From: Bacilli bacterium
GTDB taxonomy: Bacteria > Bacillota_I > Bacilli_A > RF39 > UBA660
Assembly (NCBI GenBank): GCA_017397685.1
Contig: JAFQID010000019.1
Span: 9,138-73,137, forward strand
Direction: 5' to 3'
Length of the DNA stretch: 64,000 nucleotides
A program made the position numbers and the translations under genes. The notes beneath the pieces were generated by a model that worked only from the letters and a program-made list of their open reading frames with translations, had not been told where the DNA came from and searched no databases. Shown here one piece after another: positions 47,012 through 57,451 of this stretch; position 1 is the stretch's first letter; every line of letters begins with the position of its first letter.

Positions 47012-47164
47012 ATTTACCTCTCTTTAAGTAAATTATATCACGTATAATGTTGAACATGAAGATTTTAAAGCTAAAATTTTTATTTCTTTATGTTTTTATT
47101 GTGATATAAAATAAAAATGAAGAAAAATATCTCTTTATCTTCATTTTTATATTATTTTAATAAA

Positions 47165-47740
47165 TTATTCTCTTAAATCACAATTGCCACCAATTGACTC
47201 TACATATGATTTAACATCTTCTATTAAGTTTCCCATATCATTGTATTTAGTAATGTCTATATTAAGCACTTTTTCTACTTCTTTATCATTCGTGTAAAAA
47301 TTTTCAATAATATTCGGTGTTTCGCCCTTGCTAGTAGCTTCATATTTATATTCAGTACCATTTCTAACGCACCTTATTCCTACACTTTGCGATACAGGTC
47401 TTGCAGTAAAATATTCAGTAAAATATAAGTATCCAACCAAGACTATCATAACTGTTATAACTACAATACATAATATTTTTAATATATCAAAAATTTTTCT
47501 AACCACTTTAGTTGAATCCACTTTTTTTATAATTGCATTTTTTATTTCATTATTAGTCAAATCATCTAAACTTACGTTAAATATTTTTGATAATTTTTTT
47601 GATTGTTCTAAATCCGGTGAAGTTTCACCTAATTCCCATTTACTTATAGTCTGTCTAGTTACATTCATTTTTTCTGCGAGTTGTTCTTGACTTAAATTAT
47701 TAAGTTTGCGTAATTCAAGAATCTTATTACCTATTATCAT
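47165..47740 (-). CDS. XRE-family HTH regulator with C-terminal TM and extracellular tail
   Basis: LSQEQLAEKMNVTRQTISKWELGETSPDL HTH_3 motif. Confidence 0.7.
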   Translation of the reverse strand: MIIGNKILELRKLNNLSQEQLAEKMNVTRQTISKWELGETSPDLEQSKKLSKIFNVSLDDLTNNEIKNAIIKKVDSTKVVRKIFDILKILCIVVITVMIVLVGYLYFTEYFTARPVSQSVGIRCVRNGTEYKYEATSKGETPNIIENFYTNDKEVEKVLNIDITKYNDMGNLIEDVKSYVESIGGNCDLRE

Positions 47741-47899
47741 TATTTATCCTCCTTTCATTTTCATAATAGCATGATAAAAATGAAAAACAACAAACGAATC
47801 GTAGAGTTAATAATTTTAATTAAAAATTAGGAGTTTTATGAATAGGTTTATATATATTTCTATAATAAGTTTTTTAAAATTAGTCCTTGTTTTGTTTTT

Positions 47900-48628
47900 T
47901 TAATATTTTAATTGTTTTGGTTTTAAAATTAGTTTTTTAGGTTCTTCAATTATTTGTAATTTAGCTTTTTGGCTATCAAAGTTATCTTCTATTATTAATT
48001 CTTTTTCTTCGTAGTTATCTATAGATTTACAAAGATAATTATTTAAATAATCACCATCAAAATTTAAATTAAATAAATTGTAGATTTCACTAAGCGAAAT
48101 AATTTTATCTTTTTTTATGATAACAAAAACATCTTCACTAGGATTATAATAAATGTATGGATAACCGCTTTCTATCATTAATTCAATTCCTGGCGCTGCA
48201 ATAAATAGAGAATTATTTTTATCTTCATTGCTAGGTATTGTAATATTTTTGTTAATTATTATATTTTGTCCAAAATCGCTTTGAATTATATCATCTATTC
48301 TTTTTCTTAATTCTTTTAAATTACTAATATAGCACGTGTCTTTGCTTCCTATAGAATAAGATGGTAATATATCTTTTGTAACATCAAAATTATAAGTATC
48401 ACTACCGAAAATATAGAGACCTAAATGCTTTTTTATTTGATTTAAAATTGTTTGTTTTTCTATTAAAGATAAACTTATTTTTCCAGGTTCTATCAAATTA
48501 AAGCTTGCATCAACAATTTTTCCAGTAATAGTAGTATGCTTTTTCATTTCATTTAATTGATTTTCAACCTCTAAATATTCTTTTCTTAACGCAAATACTA
48601 TTTGCTCAAATGTATACATTCTTTTCAT
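47900..48628 (-). CDS. hypothetical protein
   Basis: 242-aa ORF; no motif recognised. Confidence 0.35.
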   Translation of the reverse strand: MKRMYTFEQIVFALRKEYLEVENQLNEMKKHTTITGKIVDASFNLIEPGKISLSLIEKQTILNQIKKHLGLYIFGSDTYNFDVTKDILPSYSIGSKDTCYISNLKELRKRIDDIIQSDFGQNIIINKNITIPSNEDKNNSLFIAAPGIELMIESGYPYIYYNPSEDVFVIIKKDKIISLSEIYNLFNLNFDGDYLNNYLCKSIDNYEEKELIIEDNFDSQKAKLQIIEEPKKLILKPKQLKY

Positions 48629-48702
48629 AAAGTAACCTCTCTTTAAGTAAATTATATCATGTATTTATTTTTTTTTAAAATATTTTGTGTTATTATTTAT
48701 TT

Positions 48703-50424
48703 ATGAATAAAAGGAAAAGATTTTTAGATTATGTTAGTTTAGGCGATTTTTCTTTCGATTCTTTTAACGTGTTTTTAAATAATAACAATATAAAACTAGC
48801 AGAAACTCTTACGTTTGCAACTAACGATTTGAAATTTTATAGTGCTAATGCTTTAAAAATTGTTGATAACAAAGAAGTTATTCACAATCTTTTTTGTTTT
48901 TTGCTTTTCTTTTTTACTTATTATAGTGTTTTTAATGTTGATAAATATAAAAATACATTTAATCAGATTAAAGATAATGTTAATAAGTACCTTGAAAATG
49001 TTGATAATGACATTGTTTTAGAAAAGGATGCTAGAATACTTGATGTTATAGTTTATCATAGAAGTATTTCTACTAATGAGATTATTGAATATATTAAATG
49101 TTTAATAGATAAAAATGAAAGTTATTTTAATATAAAAGAAGTTCTTTTATTAAATCCAATGTGTATATATTCAAATGATGATTCTTTATTTGATTATGTA
49201 TTTAATAAGATGATTTTAGATAAAGAGCTAAGTATTTATTATGTTTCTTTGCTTAAACTTTTTTATAACCCATTTATTGATGAAGATAAAAAAGAATATT
49301 ATGTAGCTAAGTTAGATGTTTTGCCAAATATTATAAAAAAAGAAGTTTGTAATCTTTTTAATGATAATTCTAATGTACTTAGTGATGATGAGTTAAAAGA
49401 AAAATATAATATGGTTAGTAAAAATATGTTTTTTAATATTCCTAAGGAGGTTTATTATAATGATGATATTGGTTATGTTTTTACAATAGATACGTATGGA
49501 ACTAAATATAGAGATGATGCGATTAGCGTTAAGTTTGTTGGAAGTGATATGTTAGTTGGAGTTCATATTAGTGATATTGCTGGTTTTATGGAACCTGGTA
49601 GTGTTAACGATTTGATTTGTTTAAATAATTTTAAAAAGGTATATCTAGGTAATGGTTTTTCTACTTTATTTGATGATAATTCATCATCTAAGTTTTCTTT
49701 AAATAAAAACACTAATAAAAAGGTAGTTTCTTTGTTTATGATTTTTGATAAACATTTTCAACTTAAGGATTATAAATTAGTGAGTGATGTAGTTAAAATT
49801 AATGAAAATTTAAGTTTTCAAAAAGCAGATAATATTTTAAAAGATGGAAATAATGATAATAATTATTTATATAATAGTTTATATAGGTTATTTATTTTAT
49901 CTAATGTACTGAAAAATGAAAATAAAAATAAGAGTAATTATTGGAATCATAAGTATCAATATAATAACGAAAGTTATGATAGTAAAATTATTATAGATGA
50001 GTTATCTGTTTTATATAATTATTTGGTTGCGAAAATATTTACAAGTTGTGATTATCCTTTTGTATATAGATGTCAGGATGAGCCATATTATAGTGATTTA
50101 TTGGGTAAAATTAATAGCAATTATGATTTTCCTATTCTTAATAATATGTTTTGTTTTTCTAGGTATTCTATTTTTCCTGAATATCACCATGGTCTTGATA
50201 AAGAATGTTATTGTCATGCGACTTCTCCACTTAGAAGATATCCTGATTTATTTGATCAATATTTAATGCATATGTATTTGTTTAATGATAAAAAAATTAT
50301 TGTTGATGATGATTTAATTAAAGATTTAGTTGATTATTTTAACATTAGAAATGAAGAAATAAGGCTTTTTAAGGCTGAACATTCTAATGGATTAGTTTAT
50401 AAAAAGGGTCATACTCCTCATTAA
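48703..50424 (+). CDS. RNB-domain (RNase II/R-like) protein, apparently degenerate
   Basis: GTKYRDDAISV...GVHISDI resembles the RNB catalytic block but without the full Asp cluster; no cold-shock/S1 domains evident. Confidence 0.45.
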   Translation: MNKRKRFLDYVSLGDFSFDSFNVFLNNNNIKLAETLTFATNDLKFYSANALKIVDNKEVIHNLFCFLLFFFTYYSVFNVDKYKNTFNQIKDNVNKYLENVDNDIVLEKDARILDVIVYHRSISTNEIIEYIKCLIDKNESYFNIKEVLLLNPMCIYSNDDSLFDYVFNKMILDKELSIYYVSLLKLFYNPFIDEDKKEYYVAKLDVLPNIIKKEVCNLFNDNSNVLSDDELKEKYNMVSKNMFFNIPKEVYYNDDIGYVFTIDTYGTKYRDDAISVKFVGSDMLVGVHISDIAGFMEPGSVNDLICLNNFKKVYLGNGFSTLFDDNSSSKFSLNKNTNKKVVSLFMIFDKHFQLKDYKLVSDVVKINENLSFQKADNILKDGNNDNNYLYNSLYRLFILSNVLKNENKNKSNYWNHKYQYNNESYDSKIIIDELSVLYNYLVAKIFTSCDYPFVYRCQDEPYYSDLLGKINSNYDFPILNNMFCFSRYSIFPEYHHGLDKECYCHATSPLRRYPDLFDQYLMHMYLFNDKKIIVDDDLIKDLVDYFNIRNEEIRLFKAEHSNGLVYKKGHTPH

Positions 50425-50690
50425 ATAAAGTTATATGGTTTAAATTATGAGGATTAATTATTTTAACATTAATTTTTAATAACTAAAAGAAATAAATTAT
50501 TAGTTATTAAAAACTCTTAAACTCATTATTTACAATAAAAAATTGCAGGGTTTAATAAACTTTTTTTCTTTTCAAAAGTAATTATCTAAGTAATATAAAA
50601 ATATGAAATATTTGACAATTTCTTTTTTTATGTTAAAATATAGTGCAATCAAGAGCAAGTTTATTTATTGCTTTATGATAAGGGGGATTT

Positions 50691-51470
50691 ATGAATAATT
50701 TAGAACAAATCAAAAATTACAGAAACAAGTTGTTAAAATATAGAGCATTATCTTGTGCTTTAGTTTTATCAGCGGCTTTACCATGTTCTGGTTGTAAGGA
50801 AAGGGATAAAATTGAGTTTCCGGATATTTCTAACTATTCAACCATTGCTGCAACACTAGAAAGTATTAATACTACTACTACAATGGATGAAATATTTGCA
50901 GTGGATTGTTTTGTAGATAATAGAAATGATAATAGTTACGCTTTCGATGAATTACTTAATTTGTATGAAGATGCAAGAAAAGAAGAAAATTTGATAAAAT
51001 GTAATAACATTTTATATAAAATAGGTAAAATGATTATGAAAGCTCAACTATCTGAAACGCTTAACATTGATGTAGAAAGAATAACTAATCTTGATATTGA
51101 TTTAGTGAAAAATAACAATAGTGACTCAAATATGTTAGATAAAATAGTTACTATTTCATATAAAGCTAATGATAAAGAAACGATTTCTGGTGGAATTGAA
51201 TTAAATAAAGAAGAAGAAATTACAAATACTTATCTTTTAGAAAATGAGTTAGCCGATTTAGCTATAAACACTTGGAACGCTTATAATTGTTTTTTGAATT
51301 TTGATGCTGTAGATGCTGTGTATAAATCATATATAGAACACCTTCTTACTAGTGCAACAATTTCAAAACCTTATATGTTTGATTCTCGCGAAGTTATTTC
51401 AGCAGATATAGATCCAGAAAAAGTAACAATGTTTAATGCAAATGGAAAAGGCAGAGTTTTAAGAAATTAA
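50691..51470 (+). CDS. putative lipoprotein
   Basis: Signal peptide with lipobox-like LPCSGC. Confidence 0.4.
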   Translation: MNNLEQIKNYRNKLLKYRALSCALVLSAALPCSGCKERDKIEFPDISNYSTIAATLESINTTTTMDEIFAVDCFVDNRNDNSYAFDELLNLYEDARKEENLIKCNNILYKIGKMIMKAQLSETLNIDVERITNLDIDLVKNNNSDSNMLDKIVTISYKANDKETISGGIELNKEEEITNTYLLENELADLAINTWNAYNCFLNFDAVDAVYKSYIEHLLTSATISKPYMFDSREVISADIDPEKVTMFNANGKGRVLRN

Positions 51471-51516
51471 TAATAAAATTATTTGAGTGTTATTTACACT
51501 CTTTTTTTCTAATATT

Positions 51517-54087
51517 TTATACCCCACGATGATGACCTCTTTTTTTTAGGATATATTTTCTTATAAAGTCTACTGGAATGATTGTTAGTGAAATGATTAG
51601 CATTATTTCAAATTCATATATTGTAAGACCTGTTGTTCTAAATACTTCTCCTCCATAATACATGAGTATTATTTGCATTATTATTATGAACGATATTACA
51701 ATTAAAAATATTTTATTTTTTAAAAGATTTGCAAATATATTTAATCTGTAAGTTCTCGCGTTAAAAGCATTAAATATTGCTAAGAATATAAATAAACCAA
51801 AGAATGCTGTTAATAAATATTTATTTGATGGGTCTAATCTAAAAATGCTTTTTATTATGGGTGATTTTAAAAACCATATACATATTATTGTTGAATATAT
51901 TCCTGCGATTAGTATTTGATTTATCATGTATCTATTTATAATAGGTTCATCTCTTTTTTTAGGTGGTTCTTTCATATATTCTTTTAAAGCTGGTTCACAT
52001 GAAAATGCTAGTCCTGCGAATGTGTCCATTACCATATTTATCCAAAGCATTTGAACAACTGTTACTGGAGATAATATTCCTATAAAAGGACCAATGATGC
52101 TAAGCAGAACTGCACATAAATTTACACTTAACTGAAATATTACGAATTTTCTTATGCTTTTAAATATTGTTCTTCCATATAAGATAGCTGTTGAAATAGA
52201 GTTTATATTATCATCTAGTATTATTATATCACTTACTTCTTTTGCTACTTCTGTTCCACTTCCCATTGAAAAACCTACATCCGCTTTTTTTAATGCTGGA
52301 GCATCATTTACTCCATCGCCGGTCATTCCTACAGTTAGATGTAATTCTTGAGATAATTTTACTAATCTATTTTTGTCTTCAGGAAGTGATCTTGCAACAA
52401 CTTTTAAGTTAGGTATTATTTTTTTTACATTTTCATCTGATAATTTTTTTAGTTCATCACTAGTTAAAACAACATCATTATCACTTTCTATTATTTTTAG
52501 TTTTTTTGCAACTGATACTGCTGTTTCTTTTGCATCTCCAGTTATCATAACAACTTTAATACCTGCTCCTTTTATAGTCTTTATTCCTTCGTAAGCTTCC
52601 TTTCTTATTTCATCTTTTAATAATATAAATCCAAGCAAAGTTGATTTATTTATATCGCTTGTATATTTTGCCATAGCAAGTATTCTATATCCATCGCTCA
52701 TTTTTATTTTAAGGTTTTCTATATATTTATCTTTGTCTGTTAATATTTTTTCCATTCCATTATCATAAATATAAGTACATTTATTTAATATTTGTTCAAA
52801 TGCTCCTTTTATGAAAGTAGTGTTTATTTTATAATTTGTTGTTACCGCTGAATATTTTTTCTTACTGTCAAAAGCTTCAGTTTTTAAAATTTGATATTTA
52901 TCTTTTTTATCACTTTGTATAAAGTTTAGGATTGCCCTATCAGTTGTATTTCCACCCTCTGCTTCTTTTGATGAATAATAGCTATTGTTATTATAAACTA
53001 GTGATTGATATATTTGCTCAAAGTATTCTTGGTCATATTTTAATTTATCTATTTTGTTATATTCTCTTTGTTTTGTATCCATTATTGATATTACTTTTAG
53101 CTTTCCTTCTGTAAGTGTTCCTGTTTTATCTGAATATAATATATTTATGGAACCTGCGGTTTCTATTCCTACTAGTTTTCTTACTAAAACTTTTCTTTTT
53201 AGCATTCTTTTCATGTTTGATGAAAGTACTAGTGTTATCATCATTGGAAGTCCTTCTGGTACTGCCATTACAATCACAGCAACACTTAGTGTTAGTCCAT
53301 AAATTAAATGAGGGAAAAAGTTATTAAACTGTAGTATTTCATTTAAATTATAGCCATTTTTTATTATAAGTGCGTTAAATAAATATGATATTAATATTAT
53401 TAAAGCGCTTATATATCCAAGTTTGCTAATAGTGCTTGCTAAGTTTCTTAGTCTTGTTTTTAAAGGGCTTTCTATTGTTTTTTCTTGTATATCAGAAGCG
53501 ACTTTTCCATAGTATGTTTTGTCTCCTACACTAGTAATTTGTATTACTGCATTTTTTTCTGTTACTACTGATCCCATGTAAACATTTTTGTTTGTTACAC
53601 TTTTATGTTTTTCTATAGTTTCTCCAGTCAACTGACTTTCATCTACATAAAGTTCACCTGATATTACTATTCCATCTGCGGGAACTTTATCTCCACTTTC
53701 TAGGTAAACTATATCACCTACGACTACTTCTTCTAAGTCAATTGTTTCTCTTTTTTTATTTCTTAATACTTTTACATTTATGTTTGAGTTTTCTTTGTTT
53801 AATCTTTCAAATGCTTTTTCACTGCCATATTCTGAAATTGCTGAAACTAATGCGGCTAAAAAAATAGCGATTACTATTCCAAGGGTTTCGTATATGTTTG
53901 AGTCTTTAAATAAAAAAATTATTTTTATTGCTAGTGCCATTATAAGTATTTTTATTATTGGGTCATTTAATGATTCTATTACTAGTTTAAAAAACGAATT
54001 TTTATTTTTAGATGTTAATATGTTTTTTCCATGAATATTTCTAGATTTTTTTACTTCTTCATTTGTTAGTCCTTTAATATTGTTCAT
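51517..54087 (-). CDS. P-type ATPase, Ca2+-transporting (P2 type)
   Basis: DKTGTLT phosphorylation site; TGD; GDGVNDAPALKKADVGF; 10 TM segments. Confidence 0.9.
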   Translation of the reverse strand: MNNIKGLTNEEVKKSRNIHGKNILTSKNKNSFFKLVIESLNDPIIKILIMALAIKIIFLFKDSNIYETLGIVIAIFLAALVSAISEYGSEKAFERLNKENSNINVKVLRNKKRETIDLEEVVVGDIVYLESGDKVPADGIVISGELYVDESQLTGETIEKHKSVTNKNVYMGSVVTEKNAVIQITSVGDKTYYGKVASDIQEKTIESPLKTRLRNLASTISKLGYISALIILISYLFNALIIKNGYNLNEILQFNNFFPHLIYGLTLSVAVIVMAVPEGLPMMITLVLSSNMKRMLKRKVLVRKLVGIETAGSINILYSDKTGTLTEGKLKVISIMDTKQREYNKIDKLKYDQEYFEQIYQSLVYNNNSYYSSKEAEGGNTTDRAILNFIQSDKKDKYQILKTEAFDSKKKYSAVTTNYKINTTFIKGAFEQILNKCTYIYDNGMEKILTDKDKYIENLKIKMSDGYRILAMAKYTSDINKSTLLGFILLKDEIRKEAYEGIKTIKGAGIKVVMITGDAKETAVSVAKKLKIIESDNDVVLTSDELKKLSDENVKKIIPNLKVVARSLPEDKNRLVKLSQELHLTVGMTGDGVNDAPALKKADVGFSMGSGTEVAKEVSDIIILDDNINSISTAILYGRTIFKSIRKFVIFQLSVNLCAVLLSIIGPFIGILSPVTVVQMLWINMVMDTFAGLAFSCEPALKEYMKEPPKKRDEPIINRYMINQILIAGIYSTIICIWFLKSPIIKSIFRLDPSNKYLLTAFFGLFIFLAIFNAFNARTYRLNIFANLLKNKIFLIVISFIIIMQIILMYYGGEVFRTTGLTIYEFEIMLIISLTIIPVDFIRKYILKKRGHHRGV

Positions 54088-54132: not shown

Positions 54133-54161
54133 TTGACTTAAATATTATTTATATCTATAAT
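54133..54161 (+). promoter_or_regulatory. sigma-A-type promoter TTGACT-N17-TATAAT upstream of the paralog array
   Basis: Perfect -10 and near-perfect -35 hexamers with 17-nt spacer, about 30 nt upstream of the RBS of gene 54190. Confidence 0.45.
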
Positions 54162-54189
54162 AATTTTACTTGGAGGATTTTGAAAAATC

Positions 54190-54939
54190 ATGGAAAATAA
54201 TAATAATTCTAATAGTGAAGTTAGTAATGTAATAGATGAGTATAACGAGAAATACAAACGATTAAATGAGTTAAAAAGAGAACTTAAAAATAAAAAGTTT
54301 AAGAGAATATTTACATTTTCTACTACTTTAGTTTTGACTGGTGCAATGATGTTTGGCGGTTATTATATATTAAAAAATAAGAATGATGATATAAATTATA
54401 AACATGTTATAACTCAGTATCATTCAACTAAAAATGCCTTAGCTTCTTTGCCTGAGAGAGGTTTTTATAGCGAGGATGAGTTTTGTGAAACTCCTACTTT
54501 AGTTGTTAAAACACCATGGGAAAAATCTAAAACTAATGATAACTTTGTTAGATATGTTTATAGATATAGGTTAAATGGAGTTAACGAGCAAGCGTTAATT
54601 GATTATGTTGAAGCTGGTAATTATGATAATATCAAAGAAGTATTTACTTTTCTACCTGAACCTACACTAGGTGTTGAAAGTAGTGAAAATGCTGTGATAA
54701 GAGATACTTATGATATTGTATTAACTATTGATAGAATTGTTGGAGAACCTCTTATTATAGAAAATAAAAGGGGAGATTTGATTTTTGGGATATCTATGGT
54801 ATTAGGTTGGCTTGTAGCTCTTTTTGGTACGCGATATCCTCAATATCTTAAAGAAGAACTAGATTTGTTAAATGATGATTATTTAGAAGAAATTAATAGT
54901 CTTGAAAATGATATTTGTAAATTAAAGTTAAAGAAATAA
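54190..54939 (+). CDS. two-TM protein, paralog family member 1 (divergent)
   Basis: Same architecture as the next three genes (coiled-coil N-terminus, TM1, ~130-aa loop, TM2, acidic coiled-coil C-terminus); shared blocks YVYRYRLNG / YSRVVYTYNLN. Confidence 0.5.
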   Translation: MENNNNSNSEVSNVIDEYNEKYKRLNELKRELKNKKFKRIFTFSTTLVLTGAMMFGGYYILKNKNDDINYKHVITQYHSTKNALASLPERGFYSEDEFCETPTLVVKTPWEKSKTNDNFVRYVYRYRLNGVNEQALIDYVEAGNYDNIKEVFTFLPEPTLGVESSENAVIRDTYDIVLTIDRIVGEPLIIENKRGDLIFGISMVLGWLVALFGTRYPQYLKEELDLLNDDYLEEINSLENDICKLKLKK

Positions 54940-54965
54940 TTTATATACTTTAATAGGAGGGTTTT

Positions 54966-55751
54966 ATGAAGGAAGATATTAATAATTATTCTGACTATAA
55001 GGATAGCAGTGAGTTAAAAGAAAAAATAGATGAGTTAAAGAAAGAAAAAAGAAAGTATAATTTTAAAAAGGCTTTGATTACTTTGAGATATACTTTGCCT
55101 ACAATTAGTTATTTTGCTTTGACTCTAGGCGCTTCGCAATTAGTTTCTACAAAATGGGCCCCTATGCAAAAGTATGAACATATTGAATCTGAATTAAAAA
55201 AAGGGAGTACTCCTAAAATTAGCGAGCCGTTTTATAGCGAAAATAAAGAAGGACATTCTAATTTGATTTTTAAAATGCCTCCTTATTTAAGTCCTGATAC
55301 AGATAAGTATTCTAGAGTTGTTTATACTTATAATTTAAATAATATAGATATTAATAGTCTTGAAAATTGGATACAAAAAAATGATTATTCTGATATCCAA
55401 AATGCTCTTAAATTATTACCTAAACCTGTAGTAAGTGTTGAAGAATGTGATTATGAAAATAATGAAAATTATGAGGTAATAATTAAAATTGATTCTGTTA
55501 ATATTGATAAAAAAATTACAAGCAAAGATTATTTTACTTTTTATGGTATTTGTTTTTTAATCTTATGCTTTTATGCTCTTTATCAAATAGGAAATAGATG
55601 TGATTATCATCAGTATCCATATAAAGGTGCAAAGTTTTTTCCTAAATCTTTAATTAATGCTTTAGATGCGCATAAATGTTCTGAAAAATCTACAAATATA
55701 AAAGGACTTGAAAAAGAAATTGAAGAATTAGTTTTAAAACTAAATAAATAG
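54966..55751 (+). CDS. two-TM protein, paralog family member 2
   Basis: N- and C-termini nearly identical to members 3 and 4 (KEKIDELKKEKRKYNFKKAL.TLRYTLPTISY; LEKEI.ELVLKLNK). Confidence 0.55.
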   Translation: MKEDINNYSDYKDSSELKEKIDELKKEKRKYNFKKALITLRYTLPTISYFALTLGASQLVSTKWAPMQKYEHIESELKKGSTPKISEPFYSENKEGHSNLIFKMPPYLSPDTDKYSRVVYTYNLNNIDINSLENWIQKNDYSDIQNALKLLPKPVVSVEECDYENNENYEVIIKIDSVNIDKKITSKDYFTFYGICFLILCFYALYQIGNRCDYHQYPYKGAKFFPKSLINALDAHKCSEKSTNIKGLEKEIEELVLKLNK

Positions 55752-55775
55752 AAAGCTTTACAAAAATTGATAAAG

Positions 55776-55802
55776 AAAACTAGACAAAATCTAGTTTTTT
55801 TT
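55776..55802 (+). terminator. rho-independent terminator (aaaactag-acaaaat-ctagtttt plus T-tract), followed by a TGTTATAAT extended -10
   Basis: Perfect 8-bp stem plus T8 between paralogs 2 and 3. Confidence 0.55.
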
Positions 55803-55834
55803 GTTATAATATAGTCGTTCTTAAGGGGGATTTT

Positions 55835-56623
55835 ATGAAAGAAAATATGAATAATTATTCTGATTATAGGGATAATAGTGAATTAAAAGAAAAAATAGAT
55901 GAGTTAAAGAAAGAAAAAAGGAAATATAATTTTAAAAAGGCTTTGGTTACTTTGAGATATACTTTGCCTACAATTAGTTATTTTGCTTTGACTTTAGGTG
56001 GTTCGCAATTTGTTTCTACAAGAGTCTTTCCACATGCAAAGTATGAACATATTGAAACTGAGTTAAAAAGAGGAAGTACACCTAAAATTAGCGAGCCTTT
56101 TTATGGCGAAAGTAACGAAGAGCATTCTAATCTAGTTTTAAAAATGGCTCCATATTTAAATCCTGAGGGAAATGGTTATTCTAGAGTTGTTTATACTTAT
56201 AATTTAAATGTTGTTGATATTAATAAACTTGATGAATGGTTTCAAAACGTTGATTATTCTGATATGCAAAACACACTAAAATTATTACCTGACCCAATGA
56301 TAAGTGTTGAGAAATGCGAATTAGAAACACCTAGGGATAATGAAAATTATGAAGTTTTAATTAAAATAGATTCTGTTAATATTGATAAAAAAATCATAAG
56401 CAAAGATTTAACGGTTTTTTATAGTATATTGACTTTGGGGTTATTAATTTATGCTCTATGGCAGAGTGGAATGCGCGGTTGTTATATGGGATATGAAAAA
56501 GCACATTTTTTTCCTATGTCTTTAATTGATGGTTTAAATAACCTAAAGTTTTCTAATCAAGCCGATGATATAAAAAAACTCGAAAAAGAAATTGATGAGT
56601 TAGTATTAAAATTAAATAAATAA
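55835..56623 (+). CDS. two-TM protein, paralog family member 3
   Basis: See member 2. Confidence 0.55.
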   Translation: MKENMNNYSDYRDNSELKEKIDELKKEKRKYNFKKALVTLRYTLPTISYFALTLGGSQFVSTRVFPHAKYEHIETELKRGSTPKISEPFYGESNEEHSNLVLKMAPYLNPEGNGYSRVVYTYNLNVVDINKLDEWFQNVDYSDMQNTLKLLPDPMISVEKCELETPRDNENYEVLIKIDSVNIDKKIISKDLTVFYSILTLGLLIYALWQSGMRGCYMGYEKAHFFPMSLIDGLNNLKFSNQADDIKKLEKEIDELVLKLNK

Positions 56624-56644
56624 TTACATTTTTTTGGAGGATTT

Positions 56645-57451
56645 ATGAAGGAAGATATTAATAATAATTCTAGTAATTTAGAAAATAATGAATTAAAAAA
56701 TAGAATAGAAAAATTAAAGAAAGAAAAAATAGATGAGTTAAAGAAAGAAAAAAGAAAGTATAATTTTAAAAAGGCTTTAATTACTTTAAGATATACTTTG
56801 CCTACAATTAGTTATTTAGCTTTAGCTTTAGGTTCTTGCAGTTTTTTTTATAAATATGGCTCTGTAAAATATGAACATACTCTAAAGGAATTTAAATCAG
56901 GAAGCGAACCAAAAGTTAATGAGTTTTATAATGAAAATAAAAAAGAATATGCTAATTTAGTTTTTAAAGGTATTCCATATGTAAATCCTGATGGTAATAG
57001 TTATTCTAGGGTTGTTTATACTTATAATTTAGACAAAATAGATATTAATAATTTTGAAGATTGGTTACAAAATACTGATTATTCTGATATACAAAATTTT
57101 CTTAAATTATTGCCTCAACCTAATGTAAATATTGAAAATTGTGATTCTAAGTACTTTGATGAAGCGGAAAATTATGAGGTATTAATTAATATTGATCAAG
57201 TCAGCAAAACTATTTACGTTAAAGATTTTGACAAATGTATAACTGCAGCATTATATTTTATAGCGCTTTATGTATGGCGTCAATTTTCTACAAGAAATTC
57301 TTATAATGAAAAAGAAACATATAAAATCAAATTTTTCCCCGAGTCATTGATTAAAGCTTTAAAAAATCTTGAATATTCTGATGAAGCTAATGATATAAAA
57401 GAACTTGAAAAAGAAATTGATGGATTGGTTTTAACACTTAGTAAGATGTAA
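56645..57451 (+). CDS. two-TM protein, paralog family member 4
   Basis: See member 2; N-terminus carries an extra KEK repeat. Confidence 0.55.
   Translation: MKEDINNNSSNLENNELKNRIEKLKKEKIDELKKEKRKYNFKKALITLRYTLPTISYLALALGSCSFFYKYGSVKYEHTLKEFKSGSEPKVNEFYNENKKEYANLVFKGIPYVNPDGNSYSRVVYTYNLDKIDINNFEDWLQNTDYSDIQNFLKLLPQPNVNIENCDSKYFDEAENYEVLINIDQVSKTIYVKDFDKCITAALYFIALYVWRQFSTRNSYNEKETYKIKFFPESLIKALKNLEYSDEANDIKELEKEIDGLVLTLSKM

Follow-up and report, generated by a model that had tools for sequence, protein, structure and literature searches.

A tandem array of four paralogous genes encoding predicted membrane proteins, carried by a Bacilli bacterium, has been reshaped by homologous recombination through conserved sequence blocks. 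Among the strains compared, the first gene is always kept, the second is a hot spot of change, and the number of copies is four, three or about two. The array lies in a stretch of 64,000 nucleotides (nt) of contig JAFQID010000019.1 (assembly GCA_017397685.1, positions 9,138 to 73,137 of the forward strand), which was analysed as a whole and is referred to below as the window; positions are those of the window unless another contig is named. All four genes are on the plus strand: member 1 (m1, 54190-54939, 249 amino acids), the divergent founding paralogue, which is seen in every strain; member 2 (m2, 54966-55751, 261 amino acids), the polymorphic mosaic member; member 3 (m3, 55835-56623, 262 amino acids); and member 4 (m4, 56645-57451, 268 amino acids), in which an 8-residue N-terminal insertion repeats a K/E-rich motif in the alignment. 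The spacers between them measure 26, 83 and 21 nt, and a GGAGG-type ribosome-binding site precedes each gene. Proteins m2 and m3 are 70% identical, m4 is 56% identical to either of them, and m1 shares 27–29% with m2–m4, in agreement with a preliminary description of this DNA as holding four consecutive same-strand paralogues. No fifth copy was found when a profile of m1–m4 was run against all six-frame open reading frames (ORFs) of the window. The window has a G+C content of ~25% and is identical to contigs from a metagenome-assembled genome annotated as 'Bacilli bacterium' (locus tags IJB83_01755-01770).

Recombination between strains and between copies

Over shared regions, strains L002, L096 and L098 are 98–99% identical to the window, and each of them has the array of four genes. 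Across 14,752 aligned positions, L096 and L098 show 59 differences, and 47 of the 59 fall inside the 786 nt of m2, a clustering with P about 1e-48 under a uniform spread. Between the window and L002, 127 differences were counted over 5.96 kb, 68 of them in bins 55400-55799 and 56 of these in bins 55400-55699. Expressed as mean pairwise divergence between strains, synonymous (pS) and nonsynonymous (pN) values were 0.102 and 0.045 for m2, as compared with 0.019 and 0.009 for m1, 0.012 and 0.002 for m3, 0.057 and 0.010 for m4, and 0.016 and 0.003 for the flanking ATPase gene. Since pS and pN of m2 are raised together, its diversity points to imported divergent sequence rather than to a burst of amino-acid substitutions. 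Further to that, the m2 allele of L002 contains a tract of ~75 nt identical to m3 (nt 457-530), which is followed by a different type of second transmembrane (TM) segment (TM2), and the types of ectodomain loop, TM2 and C-terminal tail reassort among the m2 alleles of the window, L002, L093, L096 and L098. The 90% identity cluster of m1 comprises 13 variants on many contigs.

Exchange between copies has also left hybrid genes. In contig L001, one gene matches m2 as far as nt 456 and m3 from nt 477 onwards, switching once and cleanly; before it come the tail of m1 and a 26-nt spacer of the m1–m2 type, and after it a 21-nt spacer of the m3–m4 type and the head of m4. This arrangement implies a three-gene array produced by unequal crossing-over in a mid-gene block. 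The hybrid gene of L093 is of the L002 m2 type up to nt 747 and then takes the end of m4, after which come the exact 99-nt spacer found downstream of m4 and the dCMP deaminase gene; this implies an apparent two-gene array, presumably from a crossover in the 3′ block with the 3′ end of m4 as partner. Five independent Logan assemblies (L101-L104 and L106) show m1 followed by a single gene of 265 amino acids, which resembles m3 and P0005 and has an m4-type end and the tail found after m4. The arrangement in L094 is different again, in that a tail and a start, both of the m2 type, enclose a P0005-type gene. Arrays of four, three and apparently two genes were thus seen in the comparison of copy number and sequence across strains, for which the preliminary description had called, and sequences varied between them. 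Its proposal of duplication followed by diversification, with recombination between copies, agrees with the hybrid genes, the mosaic alleles and the changes in copy number.

The strain comparison shows a family that has expanded to four tandem genes in this species, with recombination both between copies and between alleles using three stretches of high identity: the 5′ block, a block in mid-gene around LKLLP.P, and ~50 nt at the 3′ end. Where crossing-over at these stretches is unequal, it gives rise to hybrid genes and to arrays of four, three or apparently two members, and patch-wise exchange makes m2 the mosaic hot spot. The 5′ homology block, encoding KEKIDELKKEKRKYNFKKAL.TLRYTLPTISY, occupies 55017-55112 in m2, 55886-55981 in m3 and 56720-56815 in m4 (plus strand); over ~90 nt it is 92–100% identical among m2–m4, against 52–88% over the next 300 nt. 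The longest exact match is 59 nt between m2 and m4, located in this block, and 47 nt between m2 and m3. Logan contigs break repeatedly at the 5′ block.

Gene conversion at both ends of the genes had been raised as a possibility in the preliminary description. Over 27 codons of the 5′ block there are 2–4 synonymous differences per ~13.8 sites, about half the gene-wide level (0.32–0.51 per site elsewhere), which hints at homogenisation by gene conversion, although the sample is too small for significance. The 3′ end shows ordinary synonymous divergence, and its conservation is therefore attributable to selection and not to conversion. Conversion thus remains weakly indicated at the 5′ end and is not supported at the 3′ end.

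The variable module and the predicted protein

Among m2–m4, protein identity is 80–90% from the N-terminus through the first TM segment (TM1), 56–71% in the ectodomain, 21–54% in TM2 and 44–56% in the C-terminal tail, of which only the last ~17 residues are well conserved. Nucleotide identity across TM2 drops to 30–68%. The ectodomain loop at about residues 155–170 is rich in insertions and deletions, and the strain differences in m2 delimit a variable cassette at 55400-55751 (plus strand) that comprises this loop, TM2 and the juxtamembrane tail. The variable module is therefore one ectodomain loop with TM2 and the juxtamembrane tail, and not the ectodomain as a whole. Near-identical ends flanking a divergent central loop, as first described for m2–m4, hold for the 5′ block through TM1 and for the last ~17 residues; it is TM2 and the juxtamembrane tail, not the ectodomain core, that diverge most.

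Region-level Nei-Gojobori estimates of the ratio of nonsynonymous to synonymous substitution (dN/dS) among m2–m4 were 0.10–0.34 for the N-terminal cytoplasmic part, 0.38–0.67 for the ectodomain (0.27 between m2 alleles), 0.6–1.0 for TM2 and 0.23–0.82 for the C-terminal tail. All regions are at or below 1 and the ectodomain core is kept in remote relatives, contrary to the earlier idea that diversification centres on the exposed domain: region-level identity and dN/dS both indicate that the exposed domain as a whole is not the diversifying part.

These values bring forward an alternative, in which m1–m4 would be ordinary lineage-specific structural or envelope-organising proteins, for example a scaffold that oligomerises via its cytoplasmic helices, with m2–m4 redundant and the mosaics and copy-number changes neutral by-products. 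Purifying selection acts on all members between strains (pN/pS below 1 throughout, 0.16–0.47), the ectodomain core and a polar TM1 are conserved in distant relatives, the promoter and m1 are stable in all strains, and fast change of TM2 is typical of a simple hydrophobic anchor. The raised pS of m2 would, on such an account, reflect imported rather than selected variation, and the invariance of m3 and m4, like that of the relative P0009, also fits. However, neutrality sits poorly with 47 of 59 differences falling in one gene between otherwise near-identical strains, and with several types of TM2 and tail being kept and reassorted, beyond what drift commonly produces in a redundant copy; the absence of the genes from the syntenic site in 80 related species argues against a core envelope component. 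We consider this alternative doubtful but deserving of serious weight.

The layout assigned to the proteins in the preliminary description, a Lys/Glu-rich coiled-coil N-terminus, TM1, an extracytoplasmic region, TM2 and an acidic C-terminal coiled coil, fits the predicted architecture, in which a basic cytoplasmic helix leads to TM1 and a short helical tail follows TM2. Hydropathy analysis gives two hydrophobic segments, of which TM2 is clearly hydrophobic, while TM1 of m2–m4 (ALITLRYTLPTISYFALTLG) is conserved yet weakly hydrophobic, with Arg, Pro and Tyr within it in m2 and m3. Seven of the 15 residues preceding TM1 are Lys or Arg. An AlphaFold2 model built on an 11-sequence family alignment shows a helix at residues 3–59, in which the N-terminal helix runs into TM1, then ~8 strands and 2 helices over 62–187, a TM2 helix at 189–214 and C-terminal helices at 227–260. 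Taken together, the positive-inside charge distribution, the model and the hydropathy profile support a predicted two-pass membrane protein whose two ends lie in the cytoplasm and whose beta-rich domain, of ~125 residues, is outside. Ectodomain motifs (PW.K, Y.R.VYTY.L, DY..I, LP.P and YEV..ID) are kept even in relatives only 20–40% identical. The C-terminal LEKEI.ELVLKLNK, attributed originally to all four members, does not extend to m1, whose end differs.

Such a topology and domain size would also fit the input module of histidine kinases or chemoreceptors, so that the proteins could be membrane sensors or signal relays whose short cytoplasmic helices recruit a partner. A nearby protein with an HTH_3 domain and a TM helix (47165-47740, minus strand) faintly resembles TM1 and the first ectodomain strands (9–10 bits), a resemblance that is not significant. 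The cytoplasmic parts, of ~35 and ~50 residues, match no domain, and there is neither a match to a sensor-domain family nor an adjacent regulator; it is above all the lack of an output domain that makes a sensor role very improbable.

Family distribution, candidate regulatory signals and neighbouring DNA

Searches of the four members against Pfam, NCBIfam, PADLOC and PHROGs (for Pfam and NCBIfam also with 11 family members singly) returned only sub-threshold noise. One such match, of a single member to the MSC_0882 family membrane proteins (NF045846), reached 11.8 bits (E = 0.1) against a curated cutoff of 60 bits and was rejected. A profile search of PDB sequences gave nothing relevant, its only match being NavAb at E about 0.1, and Foldseek searches of PDB and BFVD with full-length and ectodomain models gave no match at E <= 0.001. 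HMMER, run exhaustively over 1.84 billion cluster representatives, yielded 9 hits, of which 8 are credible (3 clusters from the same species and 5 more distant) and one, a 652-amino-acid repeat protein, is spurious. The more distant proteins (listed as P0008, P0009 and P0011-P0014) are 175–268 amino acids long and share the layout and the ectodomain motifs; P0009, a remote single-copy relative, is identical on 15 contigs. All family-bearing loci have 24–27% G+C, and the credible members come from gut Bacilli. We conclude that this is a small, patchy and lineage-restricted family, which is unannotated and unmatched in the sequence collections searched and hence new. A well-characterised housekeeping family of invariant copy number and loop sequence, the alternative named in the preliminary description, is not what was found: no family matched, and both copy number and sequence vary.

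The nearest species representatives of the flanking P-type ATPase are at most 70% identical and belong to uncultured gut Bacilli labelled 'Tenericutes', Candidatus Coprosoma and Ca. Pelethosoma, with closed genomes of 1.26–1.52 Mb; we take these lineages to be RF39-type reduced-genome gut Bacilli. At none of 80 loci in related species was a family member present within 10 kb of the orthologous P-type ATPase. Gene neighbourhoods are unrelated between lineages, with the ATPase and dCMP deaminase genes in the window, SpoU and threonyl-tRNA synthetase (ThrRS) genes in L005 and a MiaB-like gene in L011. The last of these, a distant lineage, has its own tandem pair of family members (257 and 245 amino acids, L011 10001-11541), which indicates that tandem duplication occurred more than once in the family.

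Two candidate promoters flank the first half of the array, as the preliminary description had noted from sequence matches, with a terminator-like element between them. The first site, P1 (TTGACT-N17-TATAAT, 54133-54161, plus strand, 11 of 12 consensus positions), lies ahead of m1; its hexamers and 17-nt spacing are unchanged in six strains, with two spacer substitutions in L002. Between m2 and m3, an AU-rich 17-bp hairpin followed by a T tract (55768-55806, plus strand) has a folding energy of -15.9 kcal/mol (z = -5.6), a value equalled by 0 of 200 shuffled sequences. A simple terminator scan missed this hairpin because it has fewer than three G-C pairs; it recurs in L002, L003, L096 and L098, its T tract being T7 or T8, and L094 does not have it. 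The second site, P2 (TAGACA-N18-TATAAT with a TG extension, 55781-55810, plus strand, 11 of 12 positions), lies ahead of m3 and overlaps the hairpin. No hairpin was found downstream of m4. Taken together, promoter-like matches show no enrichment over what so AT-rich a region would be expected to hold (34 against 27.5 ± 5.3), and P1 and P2 are regarded as putative promoters, being consensus matches conserved across strains. Two transcription units would be likely on these matches, one from P1 through m1 and m2 to the terminator-like hairpin and one from P2 through m3 and m4. The T tract at 55796-55803, which is part of both the terminator tail and the P2 spacer, has eight residues (T8) in the window and in strains L096 and L098, and seven (T7) in L002 and L003, so that the -35/-10 spacing of P2 is 18 or 17 nt by strain. 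This difference is linked to nearby single-nucleotide polymorphisms (SNPs) and gives no evidence of switching.

The genes found around the array in the window and its flanks encode a Ca-type P-ATPase, dCMP deaminase, GT2, GtrA, TsaD, an RNB nuclease and helix-turn-helix (HTH) regulators; among these neighbours there was no toxin, secretion or defence gene. The HTH_3 protein at 47165-47740 is an XRE-type regulator; it has a single TM helix and a small domain outside the cytoplasm, and it aligns with the array family as KGETPNIIENFYTNDKE against KGSTPKISEPFYSENKE in the TM helix and first outside strands.

Other DNA in the vicinity also differs between strains. A 1.1-kb segment (50412-51520) is present in the window and L092 and absent in L002, L096-L099 and L101, in which the RNB nuclease and ATPase genes are directly adjacent; its ORF (50691-51470, plus strand, 259 amino acids) has an N-terminal hydrophobic stretch and Cys residues, looks lipoprotein-like and has no family match. 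Further upstream, presence/absence differences occur at 47046-48632 of the window and at 758-1657 of L096; L096 and L098 have an additional HTH gene of 267 amino acids upstream of the array, and L101 is without the 191-amino-acid HTH-TM gene and a 242-amino-acid ORF. Between 39 and 51 kb, many ORFs match no family, among them that of a Cys-rich protein of 466 amino acids that adjoins a thioredoxin-like protein with weak similarity to PedC/BrcD. On the other side, unrelated DNA begins 33 nt after the m4 stop codon in L002 (8798-9589), with a partial minus-strand ORF that has no Pfam match, and five Logan contigs end at the same 31-nt palindromic sequence, 19 nt past the stop codon (L101 8594-8624), which suggests a repeated or mobile element there.

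Known parallels and possible roles

The immunity-gene arrays esaG (DUF600, Staphylococcus aureus) and tipC (streptococci) recombine through stretches of identity at the ends of their genes, with hybrid genes and changes in copy number as the outcome (Garrett et al. 2022, PMC9484751). These arrays are the closest known evolutionary parallel for the mechanism; by sequence, fold and gene context the present genes do not belong to either family. Both systems consist of strings of tandem, non-identical paralogues with high nucleotide identity near the gene ends (in esaG also mid-gene), and in both, block recombination produces hybrid genes and copy-number change between close strains; TipC is likewise membrane-anchored with its domain facing outwards. 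At the same time, no sequence or structural similarity to either was seen in Pfam, the PDB profile search or Foldseek, and the window and flanks examined contain no cognate toxin or type VII secretion system (T7SS) genes. EsaG is a cytoplasmic protein and TipC a lipoprotein, in contrast to the two TM helices and the terminal cytoplasmic helices of the proteins described here, and the array has 2–4 genes rather than up to 15–18.

The array could accordingly be read as an orphan or accessory immunity array, each paralogue neutralising one variant of a membrane- or surface-acting polymorphic toxin (T7SS LXG-type or bacteriocin-like), with strains gaining and losing specificities via inter-copy recombination, as for esaG and tipC. 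The published pattern (PMC9484751) is matched by tandem paralogues that differ in sequence yet share 5′, mid-gene and 3′ blocks, by the hybrids and by copy-number change; the outward-facing anchored TipC offers a precedent, and a toxin at work inside the membrane would be in keeping with TM2 being among the variable parts. Yet neither sequence nor fold resembles DUF600/EsaG, TipC (6DHX) or DUF443/TsaI, PADLOC gave no match, no WXG/LXG toxin, EssC or bacteriocin gene was present among the scanned neighbours, and remote members are single-copy in unrelated housekeeping contexts. An immunity role of this kind seems to us viable but unlikely.

Mycoplasma Vlp and Vsa are families of variable surface lipoproteins encoded by clustered paralogues with conserved 5′ ends in reduced, low-GC genomes. 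The array described here shares the clustering of paralogous surface-protein genes, the conserved 5′ ends and the kind of genome, as well as a homopolymer tract in a promoter spacer (T7 or T8 in P2). It differs in having no lipobox but a charged cytoplasmic N-terminus of ~35 residues followed by TM1, no internal tandem repeats and no invertible elements, and in that the T-tract difference is tied to haplotype and co-varies with linked SNPs.

A second comparison is with the IdpA-type proteins of phytoplasmas, which have N- and C-terminal membrane anchors and an exposed central hydrophilic domain. Phytoplasma immunodominant membrane proteins are single-copy, with positive selection reported in the exposed domain (reviewed in PMC12114192 and PMC10003417). 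Shared features are an origin in low-GC bacteria related to Bacilli/Mollicutes, two terminal TM anchors around an exposed domain (predicted here from hydropathy, charge and AlphaFold2) and high variability between strains. There is no homology, however, and in our family the exposed core is under purifying selection (dN/dS 0.38–0.67), with variation coming from recombination among tandem copies.

Our preferred explanation is that of a lineage-restricted, recombining family of two-TM proteins forming a variable surface-protein or immunity-like array, an account that may well be right and that we hold tentatively, short of calling it probable. Members m2–m4 would then be partly interchangeable variants of a surface-displayed envelope protein, and reshuffling between strains may alter what the cell shows to a partner outside, or can tolerate from it, be that partner a phage, a competitor's toxin or the host. 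The module swapped would span one ectodomain loop, TM2 and the juxtamembrane tail.

Several points weigh against this explanation. The three-gene state comes from one short MEGAHIT contig (L001) and the two-gene states from short Logan contigs, and repeat-driven assembly chimeras are possible; in answer to this, the longest exact m2/m3 match is 47 nt, the switches are clean and single, the spacers are those expected and the 265-amino-acid form occurs in five runs. Region-level dN/dS (0.38–0.67) gives no positive selection on the core of the ectodomain, and a helix embedded in the membrane belongs to the most variable part, unlike the prediction of simple antigenic or receptor variation. Both m3 and m4 are nearly invariant among four-gene strains and P0009 is identical on 15 contigs, so that the family is not intrinsically hypervariable. 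The AlphaFold2 model is of moderate confidence, with a mean predicted local distance difference test score (pLDDT) of 68 overall and 75–84 in the ectodomain core. Across the family there is no conserved gene neighbourhood and no homologue of characterised function, and the proposed role is inferred throughout.

A more specific form of the preferred explanation is a hitherto unrecognised cassette-type variation system of reduced-genome gut Bacilli, in which the swappable loop/TM2/tail module would set specificity against an external antagonist (a membrane-acting toxin or a phage for which the protein is the receptor) and the tandem copies would serve as a pool of donors. We put this forward as a speculative proposal that is rather unlikely to hold in full. 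Were it true, the array would be a functional counterpart of the T7SS immunity arrays with an unrelated fold and no linked toxin.

Tandem multigene families of surface and membrane proteins that evolve by recombination between paralogues are already well known. The present locus adds a compact natural example of how blocks conserved between tandem paralogues lead to hybrid genes and to changes in copy number, in uncultured gut Bacilli with genomes of ~1.2–1.5 Mb that are common in humans and livestock and whose cell surface is almost uncharacterised. Near-identical strains differ at few other places, and the protein therefore probably has a part in interactions at the level of strains, be it with phage, with competitors or with the host. 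Should the swapped cassette turn out to set specificity, the family would count as a new class of variable protein, of the envelope or immunity kind, and would be useful for telling strains apart; otherwise, it would be an ordinary lineage-specific multigene family.

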